Position numbers and translations under genes: made by a program. From IMG/VR virus record IMGVR_UViG_3300029043_000159: a stretch of DNA of 9,071 nt; one strand, written 5' to 3'. This document shows, in pieces, positions 3,535 to 9,071 of the stretch. The notes below the pieces were generated by a model. The model did not search any database, was not told where the DNA came from, and saw only the letters and a list, made by a program, of their open reading frames with translations. Origin of the DNA: a virus. Its lineage: Duplodnaviria; Heunggongvirae; Uroviricota; Caudoviricetes. Each line of letters opens with the position of its first letter. Position 1 is the stretch's first letter.

Positions 3535-3583
3535 TAATGCCGATCAGTTAAGGATCAGTTGACCGATCCAGTGGCTGTGTAAG

Positions 3584-3618
3584 AATCCGGAAACGCTCAC
3601 TTGTTTCCGGATTTTTTT
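3584..3618 (+). promoter_or_regulatory. Perfect 11-bp hairpin plus T-run inside the IS4 left end, immediately 5' of the transposase ATG (terminator-like)
   Basis: 'aatccggaaac' (3584-3594), loop 'gctcactt', 'gtttccggatt' (3603-3613), then T-run to 3618; the ATG is at 3619. Seen directly in the sequence; function inferred. Confidence 0.4.
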
Positions 3619-4947
3619 ATGCACATTGGACAGGCTCTTGATCTGGTATCCCGTTACGATTCTCTGCGTAACCCACTGACTTCTCTGGGGGATTACCTCG
3701 ACCCCGAACTCATCTCTCGTTGCCTTGCCGAATCAGGTACTGTAACGCTACGCAAGCGCCGTCTTCCCCTCGAAATGATGGTCTGGTGTATTGTTGGCAT
3801 GGCGCTTGAGCGTAAAGAACCTCTTCACCAGATTGTGAATCGCCTGGACATCATGCTGCCAGGCAATCGCCCCTTCGTTGCCCCCAGTGCCGTTATTCAG
3901 GCCCGCCAGCGCCTGGGAAGTGAGGCTGTCCGCCGCGTGTTCACGAAAACAGCGCAGCTCTGGCATAACGCCACGCCGCATCCGCACTGGTGCGGCCTGA
4001 CCCTGCTGGCCATCGATGGTGTGTTCTGGCGCACACCGGATACACCAGAGAACGATGCAGCCTTCCCCCGCCAGACACATGCCGGGAACCCGGCGCTCTA
4101 CCCGCAGGTCAAAATGGTCTGCCAGATGGAACTGACCAGCCATCTGCTGACGGCTGCAGCCTTCGGCACGATGAAGAACAGCGAAAATGAGCTTGCTGAG
4201 CAACTTATAGAACAAACCGGCGATAACACTCTGACGTTAATGGATAAAGGTTATTACTCACTGGGACTGTTAAATGCCTGGAGCCTGGCGGGAGAACACC
4301 GCCACTGGATGATACCTCTCAGAAAGGGAGCGCAATATGAAGAGATCAGAAAACTGGGTAAAGGCGATCATCTGGTGAAGCTGAAAACCAGCCCGCAGGC
4401 ACGAAAAAAGTGGCCGGGACTGGGAAATGAAGTAACAGCCCGCCTGCTGACCGTGACGCGCAAAGGAAAAGTCTGCCATCTGCTGACGTCGATGACGGAC
4501 GCCATGCGCTTCCCCGGAGGAGAAATGGGGGATCTGTACAGTCATCGCTGGGAAATCGAACTGGGATACAGGGAGATAAAACAGACGATGCAACTGAGCA
4601 GGCTGACGCTGAGAAGTAAAAAGCCGGAGCTTGTGGAGCAAGAGCTGTGGGGTGTCTTACTGGCTTATAATCTGGTGAGATATCAGATGATTAAAATGGC
4701 GGAACATCTGAAAGGTTACTGGCCGAATCAACTGAGTTTCTCAGAATCATGCGGAATGGTGATGAGAATGCTGATGACATTGCAGGGCGCTTCACCGGGA
4801 CGTATACCGGAGCTGATGCGCGATCTTGCAAGTATGGGACAACTTGTGAAATTACCGACAAGAAGGGAAAGGGCCTTCCCGAGAGTGGTAAAAGAGAGGT
4901 CCTGGAAATACCCCACAGCCCCGAAAAAGAGCCAGTCAGTTGCTTAA
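3619..4947 (+). CDS. insG: IS4 transposase (442 aa from the ATG at 3619; the ORF track's 448-aa version starts at an upstream TTG at 3601)
   Basis: Translation [77 protein letters not shown]… ending …[13 protein letters not shown] matches the E. coli K-12 IS4 transposase InsG from memory. Stop TAA at 4945-4947 lies inside the right inverted repeat. Confidence 0.95.
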
Positions 4948-4960
4948 CTGACTGGCATTA

Positions 4961-5611: not shown

Positions 5612-5687
5612 GGCCCCTTAGCTCAGTGGTTAGAGCAGGCGACTCATAATCGCTTGGTCGCTGGTTCAAGTCCAGCAGGGGCCACCA
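5612..5687 (+). tRNA. ileX: tRNA-Ile2 (anticodon CAU, lysidine-type), 76 nt including encoded CCA
   Basis: GGCCCCTTAGCTCAGTGGTTAGAGCAGGCGACTCATAATCGCTTGGTCGCTGGTTCAAGTCCAGCAGGGGCCACCA: 7-bp acceptor stem, GTTCAAGTCC T-arm, anticodon stem GGCGA/TCGCT flanking loop C-T-CAT-A-A. Matches E. coli ileX from memory and sits next to mug as in E. coli. Confidence 0.93.
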
Positions 5688-6231: not shown

Positions 6232-6519
6232 TTACCGCCGTAAGTGCTCCGGCTTCCTCCACTGGTAAGTATTTTTCGCGCTCTCCCTCCGTTGTTGAGA
6301 ACGGCGACGGTATGCCAGCAACTCAAGAACTCTGGTTCGTATGTTGCGCATATCCACGCCGTTAAGCTCAATACCGTCACGGAGCATCACCTCAGCCACC
6401 ACACGCGCGTAATTTTCAGCGGTGACTGTATCCGGCTGCGCGGCCTGTTCGTCAACCAACTGGCTGATTCCACCAGCACAGCGGATTAATCGCAGTATTT
6501 CAGATTCGGTCATTATCAT
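6232..6519 (-). CDS. Hypothetical protein (95 aa), translationally coupled to the upstream TerS-like gene by an ATGA overlap
   Basis: ORF MIMTESEILRLIRCAGGISQLVDEQAAQPDTVTAENYARVVAEVMLRDGIELNGVDMRNIRTRVLELLAYRRRSQQRR…; its ATG (6517-6519) overlaps the TGA stop (6516-6518) of the preceding gene. No family recognised; could be a stand-alone small protein or the residual N-terminus of a deleted downstream gene. Confidence 0.55.
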   Translation of the reverse strand: MIMTESEILRLIRCAGGISQLVDEQAAQPDTVTAENYARVVAEVMLRDGIELNGVDMRNIRTRVLELLAYRRRSQQRRESAKNTYQWRKPEHLRR

Positions 6520-7001
6520 GCCTGTTTTGCGACCTCATTCACTACGTCATTTTTTACCATCCGGCTGATAATCTGATTACGCAAATCGTCAATAATTGAC
6601 TGCACTCTGTTTACTGCCATCGGTTTAAGCCCAGCATCACGTGCCAGAATATTGGGGAGTTTTGCCAGTTCCTCGCTTACGACCTCCCCCCATATAGCCA
6701 TCTCTTTTCGCACATCATCGGCGGGTATGAGTTGCGCCGTTTCCTGTTCGAACTTGAGGCGCTCACGTTCGGACTGATACCAGGCCTTACGGTCATGTGG
6801 CTCCATTTCTTCCAGTGATGCCGGAACGGGAAGATCAAGAAAACAGGTCAGAATGTCAGTCACCCGATAGAGTTTCAGCTTGTCATGCCCTCCGGCTGGC
6901 TGGATGTTTTTCAGCCTTGCCGCCGCAGTCTGACGACATATTCCCGCTATCGCCGCCAGTTGGTTAATGTTCAGCATCAGATTTTTCAGTTCTCGATCCA
7001 T
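6516..7001 (-). CDS. Phage terminase small subunit-like protein (lambda Nu1-like N-terminal DNA-binding domain), 161 aa from the ATG at 7001
   Basis: Start chosen at the Met preceded by 'ctggagcggat' (GGAG about 5 nt upstream); the ORF track's longer version begins in the promoter region. N-terminus 'LNINQLAAIAGICRQTAAARLKNIQPAGGHDKLKLYRVTDIL' parallels lambda Nu1 'VNKKQLADIFGASIRTIQNWQEQGMPVLRGGGKGNEVLYDSAAVI' (N-x-x-QLA-x-I-x-G … GG … LY pattern). Similarity judged by eye from memory of Nu1; it could instead be another helix-turn-helix protein. Confidence 0.5.
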   Translation of the reverse strand: MDRELKNLMLNINQLAAIAGICRQTAAARLKNIQPAGGHDKLKLYRVTDILTCFLDLPVPASLEEMEPHDRKAWYQSERERLKFEQETAQLIPADDVRKEMAIWGEVVSEELAKLPNILARDAGLKPMAVNRVQSIIDDLRNQIISRMVKNDVVNEVAKQA

Positions 7002-7252: not shown

Positions 7253-7335
7253 TGAACACTTCACTGATTCTATTAATGCGCTTCTGCTCTCCACCAGCAA
7301 TATTTGCCTCCCCCTGTAGCGATGTAATCATTCCT

Positions 7336-7650
7336 TTAATGTTTTCCGGCATATGTAAAAGTCTCCCGGGCGTTTCGATTCAATTCGCGCCATTGCTCTG
7401 ACAGATGGCAACAATTCATCAGCAAAACCGTGCTTAAGACATTCTTTTCCATCTAAGTTTCATCTTCCTGCATGTCGGCAATTTCCTGTGCCGATTTGCC
7501 CGTTTTTCTGGCATAAGCAGGGATTAATACGGTTTCTACCTTACCCAGCAAATCAGCATAATCACGCATATCGCCAGAGATACCCCACGGCTTATGGATC
7601 ATCATGCAACACATTCGAAATATGCCTCTGTTAATTAAGCCTTTTTTCTG
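7336..7650 (-). pseudogene. Remnant of a ClpP-family (S14-like) serine protease gene, possibly a phage prohead protease: 5'-truncated with an in-frame TAG
   Basis: Minus-strand frame reads …NRGIFRMCCMMIHKPWGISGDMRDYADLLGKVETVLIPAYARKTGKSAQEIADMQEDET*MEKNVLSTVLL…. 'MMIHKPWG … TGKSAQEIADMQED' parallels E. coli ClpP 'RVMIHQPLGG … TGQSLEQIERDTERD' (catalytic His region). The frame opens only after a stop at 7651-7653 with no upstream coding partner, and has an in-frame TAG (plus 7453-7455). By-eye homology from memory. Confidence 0.45.
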
Positions 7651-7710
7651 CTAATGGGCATTGGTTAACTCCAAATGCAATACACCACCATTTATATGGT
7701 TAAAGGCACG

Positions 7711-7739
7711 TTGCATTGAGTTACACATAGTAATATATT
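7711..7739 (+). promoter_or_regulatory. Candidate sigma70 promoter TTGCAT-N17-TATATT driving the AT-rich plus-strand cassette
   Basis: -35 'ttgcat' at 7711-7716, 17-nt spacer, -10 'tatatt' at 7734-7739, within very AT-rich DNA. Confidence 0.4.
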
Positions 7740-7797
7740 AATAAAAAAAATAAATTATGGTATTACTAATGGACATTATCGGCTTCGTTAATAACCC

Positions 7798-8376
7798 GTG
7801 GTTTGTAGGTATCGCTGGAGGGGACTTATTACAACCTGGATTGGTCGCAAGGTTTTTTCTGGTAAAGACAAAAAAGAGTATTTGCTAAAGGTCGAGGCGA
7901 CTAACAAAGAAATAGTTTACTCTTTACGGTCAGCTATATCTGACGCTATCCACCATGATAGAAAAGTAATATTGAGTTTAATGGCTGCAACTGCAAGAAA
8001 AAATGGCGTTTTGCTAAAAGACATTTACACTATTAAAGAAATCACGGAGGATTTAATTAAGGAAGTGATTGATTCTAGCTTCATCCCTTCAGATTATAAA
8101 AAGAATTTTTGCGAAACTCTTTCGAAGATTTATCTCCATGCTGAACCAGCAACAGAAGAATCTTCAGAGAAATATATTTATGAGAAAGAGCAAGCCGCTC
8201 ATCTTTCTAGAAAAAACGAAAGTATCATTGCGAGTGCTACAACTCTTCTTGGCGTTATGGTAGCCTTATTAACGTTCGCATTATCATTCATTCAAAGCGG
8301 TAGTTCAGCACTTGACACACTTCGGGAAGCGCTATTCTTTGGAATTGGGCCGGCTATAGCAAAGTATTCCCAGTAG
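7798..8376 (+). CDS. Hypothetical protein with a single C-terminal transmembrane helix (up to 192 codons; true start uncertain, an in-frame ATG at 7981 would give 131 aa)
   Basis: Only sizeable plus-strand ORF in the AT-rich cassette; AT-rich codon usage. Hydrophobic segment 'IIASATTLLGVMVALLTFALSFI' near the C-terminus. No family recognised. The GTG at 7798 has no obvious Shine-Dalgarno sequence. Confidence 0.45.
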   Translation: MVCRYRWRGLITTWIGRKVFSGKDKKEYLLKVEATNKEIVYSLRSAISDAIHHDRKVILSLMAATARKNGVLLKDIYTIKEITEDLIKEVIDSSFIPSDYKKNFCETLSKIYLHAEPATEESSEKYIYEKEQAAHLSRKNESIIASATTLLGVMVALLTFALSFIQSGSSALDTLREALFFGIGPAIAKYSQ

Positions 8377-8405
8377 CTTTCCCAGCTTTCATCGCGTTGG
8401 TGTCA

Positions 8406-8546
8406 ATGATGATATTGGTCATAATAAAAACAGTAATAAATAAAAAGGAAAGGACCTTCTTTATTTCAGCAGAGCCACAGGAGAATAAAAATAATAAAAC
8501 AGAAAACGCTAAGAAAGAAAGTGGCGATGAAAAAGATTCGAAGTAG
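8406..8546 (+). CDS. Possible small membrane peptide (46 aa from the ATG; the frame is open upstream and encodes a hydrophobic stretch followed by a Lys/Glu-rich tail)
   Basis: Open frame from 8316 reads …FPAFIALVSMMILVIIKTVINKKERTFFISAEPQENKNNKTENAKKESGDEKDSK*. It overlaps the 3' end of the 192-codon ORF in another frame; no clear ribosome-binding site. Confidence 0.2.
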   Translation: MMILVIIKTVINKKERTFFISAEPQENKNNKTENAKKESGDEKDSK

Positions 8547-8578
8547 TTTTTTGTAAATTGACTTCAAATAACAGATTA

Positions 8579-8606
8579 AAGGTTGCTCCGATATGGGGTA
8601 ACCTTT
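8579..8606 (+). terminator. Weak hairpin plus T-rich tract, possible terminator for the plus-strand cassette
   Basis: 'aaggtt' … 'aacctt' with a 16-nt loop, followed by 'ttatatattttta'. Weak. Confidence 0.2.
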
Positions 8607-8653
8607 TATATATTTTTATACAGATATACTCGGTCATTTATGGAATATTATGA

Positions 8654-9071
8654 TTAAGCCCATAACTCACCACTTTCTGATTCTTGCGCCCTTCGAACCA
8701 TCTCATCGCGTAAATCATCTATAACGCCCTGAACACGCGATACCGCTGACGGCGTTAACGCACAATCTCGTTAGAGGATATCCGGAAGCGTTTCCAGTTC
8801 CTGAACAACAGCCTTTGCCAGGGTGGAATATTCACGCGCAACCTCTTCAGAGGGTAGAAGCTCCCGTTCTTCTTTTTCGAGCTTGAGCCTTTCATTTTCC
8901 CACTGATACCATGCCTTTCTATCCTGCGGCGACATTTCACCATTTCCTCGCACCGATGGCATGATAAGCACTCGTAAGGCTTTCCCAAGTTCGTACTGTT
9001 TAAGGTTTTCCCCGTTCCCGCCGACTAACTCCAGATCACGCAGCCGCCGCGCAACCAAGTTACGATTCATG
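8654..9071 (-). pseudogene. Second, diverged terminase-small-subunit-like gene: in-frame TAA (plus 8771-8773), 5' end beyond the window
   Basis: Minus-strand frame reads …SPQDRKAWYQWENERLKLEKEERELLPSEEVAREYSTLAKAVVQELETLPDIL*RDCALTPSAVSRVQGVIDDLRDEMVRRAQESESGELWA*. It aligns along its length with copy 1 (…EPHDRKAWYQSERERLKFEQETAQLIPADDVRKEMAIWGEVVSEELAKLPNILARDAGLKPMAVNRVQSIIDDLRNQIISRMV…); the TAA sits where copy 1 has Ala. The N-terminal alignment implies the true start is past position 9071. Confidence 0.6.

Follow-up and report, generated by a model that had tools for sequence, protein, structure and literature searches.

Phage-inducible chromosomal islands (PICIs) carry immune systems at the ends of the element and next to pri (PMC11364771; PMC10085698), and P4-like satellites carry theirs between psu and int (PMC9122126). 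For helper-embedded PICIs (HE-PICIs), a published integration site group, C:CLP_protease:110, includes 24 E. coli cases in which the target is the ClpP gene of a PICI located in tRNA-Ile2 (PMC10111431). Here we analyze a viral DNA stretch of 9,071 nucleotides (IMG/VR record IMGVR_UViG_3300029043_000159, Caudoviricetes; the whole stretch is referred to below as the window), in which an earlier note had singled out the interval 7635-8653 as a later AT-rich, promoter-bearing cassette with an open reading frame (ORF) of no recognized family. We show that this interval is the integrase-distal end of an HE-PICI inserted in the ClpP/capsid gene of an older PICI, itself in tRNA-Ile2 (ileX). The feature is thus real but had been mis-parsed, and its gene is a member of an uncharacterized membrane protein family in a recognized kind of hotspot.

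Organization of the locus

The left boundary of the interval is a site-specific recombination junction, with no scar of a replacement. It carries a 12-mer, ATGGATCATCAT, which in an Enterobacter cloacae locus (L005) is found at both ends of a 10.7-kb element (positions 9842-9853 and 20553-20564). In this locus and in one from Pectobacterium (L006), the homolog of the gene studied here is the last gene of a satellite, reading inward from the element end, and the satellite genes are ordered int, AlpA, primase, ClpP/major capsid protein (MCP), (DUF1441); both loci, together with one from Enterobacter bugandensis (L010), encode an integrase (PF13356 and PF00589), Phage_AlpA, a D5_N/DUF5906/Pox_D5 primase, the ClpP/MCP fusion and DUF1441. 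Directly outside the homolog in L005 and L006 lies a 551-553-aa truncated prophage ClpP/capsid fusion ORF starting with MMIHKPWG, the same start as that of the remnant in the window, and the missing 5' part of ClpP is located beyond the satellite integrase, as it also is in NCTC9699. By counting in the 640-aa protein of L005, the histidine at the junction is H110; the far end of the inner element falls outside the window. The layout of a prophage ClpP/MCP gene without its N-terminus, followed by the homolog and then by satellite genes, was found in four further loci (L005, L006, L063 and L064), two IMG/VR contigs among them. Six loci carry one or two copies of a second short sequence, GCAATACAC, following the 12-mer, and in L005 and L006 it adjoins int twice.

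The outer element was delimited in E. coli GPEC996, where a 25-bp repeat of the ileX 3' end bounds it beside a 472-aa integrase at the far end; this integrase abuts nfeF in both GPEC996 and MS1679. In NCTC9699 the composite is fuller, and a complete inner satellite separates the two halves of the ClpP gene. MS1679, the closest relative of the window, keeps only the outer integrase and has no annotated AlpA. The two DUF1441 copies of the window are therefore one each from two nested satellites. The ClpP remnant lacks codons 1-106 because of the HE-PICI insertion, and at 7254/7255 the outer ClpP/MCP gene has lost about 1.24 kb of its capsid part (a 1237-bp gap by BLAST against F11, L061 13694-14930), which leaves DUF1441 copy 1 near the remnant. 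The composite has thus lost DNA after its formation: part of the capsid gene is gone, as is the inner integrase in the closest complete genomes. The shorter form seen in the window and MS1679 would have arisen by recombination between the two related satellites plus the 1.24-kb capsid deletion.

This nested setting is already known, and we dropped the proposal of a newly seen kind of satellite integration, since the arrangement had been described as an HE-PICI. The published tRNA-Ile2 composite (PMC10111431) has its inner element integrated at the same point (the histidine of MMIH, ClpP codon 110), and it also agrees in the outer element in ileX, with its distinctive 472-aa integrase and no alpA, and in the gene zones (primase, DUF4222, Icd-like, ClpP/MCP fusion). 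The locus of the window and MS1679 type differs in its length, about 12.6 kb against 20.6 kb, in the loss of the inner integrase and the 5' ClpP fragment, and in the partly deleted capsid gene; the gene in the end slot is not discussed in the passages of PMC10111431 on the composite.

A small int-AlpA island in Enterobacter vonholyi also carries a homolog at its end, together with the same att-like sequence, GGGTTATGGAGCATCATGCAA (L004 9808-9828). It adjoins a chromosomal CMD-family gene, not ClpP, and may be an instance of the "off-target" integration reported for this integrase group.

The interval is made up of the attachment (att) arm of the inner satellite, a promoter-like site that is conserved, a single inward-reading accessory gene that stands alone, and a putative hairpin terminator. 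The shift to AT-rich composition that the earlier note had judged by eye was borne out by calculation, with a GC content of 0.353 at 7635-8653 and the lowest-GC 1019-bp segment of the entire sequence beginning at 7631 (window mean 0.494, standard deviation 0.052), and so was the opposite orientation, since the ORF reads on the plus strand, against the minus-strand ClpP remnant and the two DUF1441 genes, also on the minus strand. The putative sigma70 promoter was confirmed in its hexamers (TTGCAT and TATATT) and 17-nt spacer but is not near-consensus, matching 8 of 12 consensus positions (3/6 and 5/6); it fell under the threshold of a promoter scan, which did not list it and found fewer sites in the region than in its shuffles. 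In six orthologous loci, TTGCA and (A)TAyATT keep their positions and their distance from the start codon while the spacer sequence varies, which supports the promoter better than the consensus score alone. The hairpin lies 32 nt past the true stop of the gene, with a predicted stability of -16.5 kcal/mol (z = -3.7; none of 200 shuffles equally stable).

Both flanking genes had been described as breaking off at the edges of the interval. This holds for the ClpP remnant at the left edge; at the right edge, an in-frame TAA interrupts DUF1441 copy 2 at 8771-8773, where copy 1 has an alanine, but the homology of copy 2, followed by read-through translation, continues past this codon to the natural C-terminus at 8654, the RefSeq form being a shortened protein of 153 aa. 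Neither copy was matched by any family of the small terminase subunit (TerS), as which both had been labeled; their sole Pfam match is PF07278 (DUF1441), and a TerS-like role is plausible from their position in PICIs.

Disruption of the accessory gene

The 192-codon ORF (7798-8376, GTG start) that had been taken as the gene is the middle fragment of a 262-aa gene whose frameshifts had been missed. Translation from the conserved start at 7769 ends at 7888, and the tail is encoded by a 49-codon ORF (8397-8546). The same DNA is present in only 3 of 5426 complete E. coli genomes (MS1679, GPEC996 and 19KM1776), all with an intact 262-codon ORF (WP_112075629.1). Two deletions set the window apart from these intact alleles, one of 10 bp following 7821 (GATTTTCAGT) and one of 1 bp following 8357. 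No substitutions separate the window from GPEC996 over 1.1 kb, and over 3.4 kb there are 3 mismatches and two gaps, both gaps within the gene. GPEC996 and 19KM1776 differ in the gene by just two substitutions, both synonymous. Since the remaining long ORFs in the window are undamaged, we took the deletions as real, and the window copy is, we believe, a twice-frameshifted pseudogene. An exact look-up of the 192-aa product returned no record anywhere, and no paper was found for the accession WP_112075629.

In all three E. coli genomes with the intact accessory gene, the inner satellite's own ClpP/MCP fusion gene carries a frameshift and an internal stop (L062 16769-18678; L001 10729-12638). Because this fusion gene is frameshifted, the inner satellite is probably no longer mobile in these genomes.

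Distribution of the protein family

A word-indexed search with the intact protein retrieved 16 enterobacterial clusters, and a profile search of 1.84 billion representatives retrieved 749 clusters at E <= 1e-3, 265 of them at E <= 1e-30. All have lengths of about 220-310 aa, and the genome loci come from Gamma-, Alpha- and Betaproteobacteria, Acidobacteriota, Planctomycetota, Elusimicrobia, Firmicutes and Saccharimonadales. A total of 188 contigs encode the intact E. coli protein, and relatives with at least 90% identity, every one named "hypothetical protein", occur in Klebsiella and Enterobacter. The uniform length of the 749 clusters, the 188 contigs and the exclusively synonymous differences between GPEC996 and 19KM1776 indicate that the gene is real.

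As the earlier note had expected, the protein belongs to no recognized family: neither the intact protein nor 81 relatives gave a significant or consistent match in Pfam, NCBIfam, PADLOC or PHROGs. Weak and inconsistent matches to membrane models (BrkB, SLATT_2, holins, HtpX and others) were treated as compositional, and an assignment as a two-helix SLATT effector was not supported (NF033633, 13.4 bits against a cut-off of 40, E = 0.044; not among the families matched by the relatives). A profile search of the PDB returned designed helical proteins only, none of them significant. Three different members, used as tblastn queries, detected none of the family in 50,697 sequenced phage genomes.

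A search of plasmids returned a single homolog, from Geobacillus: pLDW-2 of Geobacillus thermodenitrificans, a conjugative plasmid of a thermophilic Firmicute, encodes a distant homolog (L003 5049-5540; 30% identity over residues 49-180) adjoining a replication gene, so that the family is also plasmid-borne.

Family members are found at 12 IMG/VR loci, and a terminase, portal, HNH or, once, amidase gene stands no more than four genes away at ten viral-contig loci. The gene has a lower GC content than its flanks in 45 of 48 family loci, by 7.9 points on average. All-against-all BLAST of the neighbors at 53 loci revealed no conserved neighbor or partner gene, for which reason we regard the gene as a stand-alone module. 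Of 150 genes located no more than two positions from a homolog, some strongly match models of Drt9, Old, PD-T7-1, PD-T7-5, TIR-TM and ThsB.

In the Enterobacter bugandensis subgroup only, a conserved 205-aa ORF follows the homolog on the same strand (L010 10900-11517; L011 1362-1979; L012 3710-4327). It has no Pfam match and is a possible partner gene; the E. coli version has no such ORF.

Predicted structure

We predict that the intact protein, for which a single terminal hydrophobic helix had been proposed from the fragment, is a 262-aa inner-membrane protein with three hydrophobic helices, in the order TM1 (transmembrane helix 1), a conserved cytoplasmic helical domain of about 100 residues, TM2, a short loop, TM3 and a cytoplasmic tail rich in lysine and glutamate (K/E). 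By hydropathy, two helices are strong (residues 160-178 and 205-223), and the N-terminal one (about 10-28) is moderately hydrophobic and highly conserved, with a glycine zipper (G14-x3-G18-x3-G22). An N-out/C-in topology, with a short periplasmic N-terminus and residues of about 30-155 in the cytoplasm, is predicted from the basic residues after TM1 and the K/E-rich tail. The AlphaFold model, based on an 81-sequence alignment, has a predicted local distance difference test score (pLDDT) of 84 overall and of 90-97 at residues of about 41-130, with a single long helix running from TM1 into a compact helical domain; a structural search gave no significant fold match. Near-invariant positions concentrate in TM1 and the cytoplasmic domain (E, N, E, R, T, R, the motif K-E-x-M-D-S-S-F, a K and a C). 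The family is thus one of uncharacterized, three-helix membrane proteins.

Variability of the element end

The ileX-proximal remnant is common to about 114 E. coli genomes. Comparison of the ileX-downstream loci, which the earlier note had suggested as a check, showed that the slot varies between strains: F11, LR-31 and NCTC9699 have the same junction and arm repeats, followed by other plus-strand cargo consisting of a 100-aa ORF with a 79- or 296-aa ORF. Together with its self-containment (promoter-like site and terminator hairpin around a membrane protein gene), this supports the earlier view of the gene as accessory cargo of a prophage or satellite, and we conclude that it is a horizontally acquired, self-contained satellite accessory gene in a strain-variable slot.

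The alternative two-gene cargo is located at L075 14475-15686, L076 14475-15686 and L061 15739-16299; in F11 the 296-aa ORF is cut to 79 aa by IS1, and a scan of the 100-aa and 79-aa ORFs gave no Pfam match. A plus-strand HEPN-domain gene lies beside the primase/RepA gene of the same satellite (MS1679, L062 19017-19730; L075 18348-19061), in a pri-adjacent accessory slot.

Other features of the window

The gene order in the window is the end of dnaG, rpoD, an IS4 copy, mug and ileX, followed by the minus-strand phage-like genes (Table 1). The ileX gene was labeled tRNA-Met (CAU) by ARAGORN and tRNA-Ile in RefSeq for MS1679 and F11. The 95-aa ORF has no Pfam match; in the 114 E. coli genomes that share the ileX-proximal layout, its annotation is "hypothetical protein". 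A 1426-bp insertion between rpoD and mug (3535-4960) contains an IS4-family transposase ORF (3601-4947); MS1679 and F11 lack it, and both align on either side of the insertion point.

Table 1. Position of the annotated features in the window.
Feature	Position	Strand	Remarks
tRNA-Ile2 gene ileX, anticodon CAU	5612..5687	+	Attachment site of the outer PICI
95-aa ORF	6232..6519	-	Last gene of the outer (tRNA-Ile2) PICI
DUF1441 gene, copy 1	6516..7001	-	Outer PICI; Pfam PF07278, E = 1.3e-36
ClpP-like prohead protease/major capsid fusion gene, remnant	7255..7614	-	Outer PICI; CLP_protease PF00574, E = 2.9e-4
att core of the inner satellite, ATGGATCATCAT	7594..7605	.	In ClpP codons MMIH; HE-PICI site C:CLP_protease:110
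Arm-type repeat, GCAATACAC	7677..7685	+	Likely integrase arm site of the inner satellite; putative binding role
Promoter-like site, TTGCAT-N17-TATATT	7711..7739	+	-35-like 7711-7716; -10-like 7734-7739
Frameshifted gene of the three-helix membrane protein	7769..8546	+	Homologous to the 262-aa WP_112075629.1
Piece 1 of this gene	7769-7821	+	
Piece 2 of this gene	7822-8357	+	Inside the 192-codon ORF
Piece 3 of this gene	8358-8546	+	
Terminator-like hairpin	8578..8606	.	Between convergent genes; 12-bp stem, then U-rich run
DUF1441 gene, copy 2	8654..9071	-	Inner satellite; runs off the window; Pfam PF07278, E = 2.1e-25

Discussion

The suggestion of the earlier note that such cargo serves exclusion, abortive infection or toxicity was drawn by analogy, and we keep it as such. 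In our proposal, the intact protein would be a single-gene module of inter-virus conflict, directed against phages. Its cytoplasmic domain would sense a cue of infection, and the helices, the glycine-zipper TM1 together with TM2 and TM3, would then oligomerize, causing leakage or depolarization of the inner membrane and, by abortive infection, protecting the population of the satellite's host; a less likely alternative is that the protein blocks the entry of DNA. This mechanism is suggested by the architecture and by general knowledge of glycine zippers and of membrane effectors of abortive infection. An accessory conflict gene is favored over a core phage function by the lack of any member in the 50,697 phage genomes, and by the stand-alone, low-GC context with defense genes among the neighbors. 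We consider that the intact protein may be anti-phage, at a probability slightly short of even, and we would grant membrane permeabilization about half of that. A broader proposal, that these are membrane proteins of immunity, each a single-gene system and together a new family that spans phyla and is carried by satellites and prophages, with a conserved four-helix cytoplasmic sensor linked directly to a glycine-zipper pore helix, and that their cost or toxicity explains the double inactivation in otherwise unchanged DNA, is one that we advance tentatively and would expect to be wrong rather than right.

Several observations weigh against an anti-phage function. Neither experiment nor homology ties the family to defense; PADLOC-DB 2.0 returned 0 families for the intact protein and only isolated matches, at E >= 7e-4, for the 81 relatives, and the fold searches gave no significant match. 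Many neighbors of the homologs are housekeeping or mobile-element genes, and any enrichment in defense genes among the neighbors is putative. The mean Kyte-Doolittle value of TM1, calculated by hand, is about 1.4, under the cut-off of 1.6 that we applied, and the promoter, with its 8 of 12 positions, overlaps a stretch that could instead hold integrase or integration host factor binding sites. Finally, the copy in the window is disrupted and hence functionless there.

Of the other explanations, the strongest is that the gene is neutral or unrelated cargo, encoding a membrane protein with a non-phage role (stress, regulation of transport, toxin) that hitch-hikes in mobile DNA. The failure to find functional homology of any kind, the heterogeneous neighbors, housekeeping genes included, and the loss of the gene here by frameshift with no obvious consequence are what it would lead one to expect. 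It does not account as easily for the strong conservation of the cytoplasmic domain across phyla or for the repeated placement of the gene in a specific end slot of satellites, given that this slot and the analogous slot of P4 have been shown to hold immune systems (PMC11364771, PMC9122126) and that known defense genes lie near some homologs. We regard it as a doubtful but serious possibility.

A role at the membrane in the life cycle of the satellite or prophage, be it holin-like, in the timing of lysis or through interference with the lysis of the helper, appears unlikely to us. The predicted N-out/C-in topology, the three helices and the highly charged C-terminal tail do resemble those of class I holins, there are sub-threshold matches to the holin models PF04971 (3 of 81 relatives, best E = 1e-4) and PF07332, and the vicinity of terminase, portal, HNH and amidase genes at the ten viral-contig loci is a region where lysis genes often sit. 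However, the family has no member in the phage genomes searched or in PHROGs, and at 220-290 aa, with an inserted conserved cytoplasmic domain, its proteins are far bigger than holins. In addition, the satellite copies have their own promoter-like site and read against the late genes, and many copies stand in chromosomal contexts with no phage genes nearby.

As to the state of the gene in the window, its two frameshifts could in principle be errors of assembly, in which case the source genome would have an undamaged gene. Such errors would agree with the identity of the flanking DNA to GPEC996 at all other positions over 1.1 kb, with the 1-bp loss in an AA dinucleotide, and with the absence of the exact 192-aa product from all records; but a 10-bp deletion is atypical of sequencing errors, the dnaG fragment, rpoD, the IS4 transposase, mug and DUF1441 copy 1 are all intact in the window, and neighboring satellite genes have decayed independently in relatives. 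We therefore hold assembly errors to be improbable and treat the window copy as a likely pseudogene. The least tenable explanation, which we think has very little chance of being correct, is that the terL/portal interior of one decayed phage packaging/head module later gave way to an AT-rich cassette, with two TerS-like copies left behind: the two DUF1441 genes flanking the region, the presence of the 95-aa partner with copy 1 only and the sharp composition break would suit it, but the left edge is an att junction with a duplicated 12-bp core, common to elements inside intact prophage genes, both ClpP halves surround a whole inner satellite in NCTC9699, no terL or portal remnant is present, and the layout fits the published HE-PICI-in-PICI composite (PMC10111431).

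The window thus mainly illustrates decay, in a known nested-satellite configuration with a pseudogenized cargo gene, and the intact allele is a reasonable candidate for defense screening. Should the intact gene confer phage resistance, it would be a compact, widely distributed single-gene addition to the defense catalogue, and helper-embedded PICIs would come under the "immune hotspot" idea as well. The gene product is also attractive for studying how a signal is coupled to a pore, since its long helix links the conserved cytoplasmic domain to TM1.

The position of the gene is that of the immune hotspots of PICIs and P4-like satellites (PMC11364771, PMC9122126), between the last late gene and att/integrase in the circular form; it is likewise strain-variable and of low GC content, with its own promoter-like site, and the HEPN gene occupies the primase-adjacent slot. 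Unlike the immune systems of these hotspots, the gene matches no catalogued system, and its immune role is a candidate one, by analogy. Small multi-helix inner-membrane proteins are carried by mobile elements, among them RexB, SieB, the transmembrane effectors of CBASS and Pycsar, KwaA of Kiwa and the class I holins, and the protein described here may likewise be of this kind, with its glycine-zipper helix and charged C-terminal tail. Its hydropathy and charge pattern are compatible with the three transmembrane helices and N-out/C-in topology of class I holins, a topology that is predicted here, but these holins measure about 70-150 aa against 262 aa here, and no lysis gene is adjacent in the satellites. 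No significant similarity in sequence or fold relates it to any of these proteins, and it has no partner sensor gene; what distinguishes it from all of them is the unique conserved cytoplasmic helical domain placed between TM1 and TM2.

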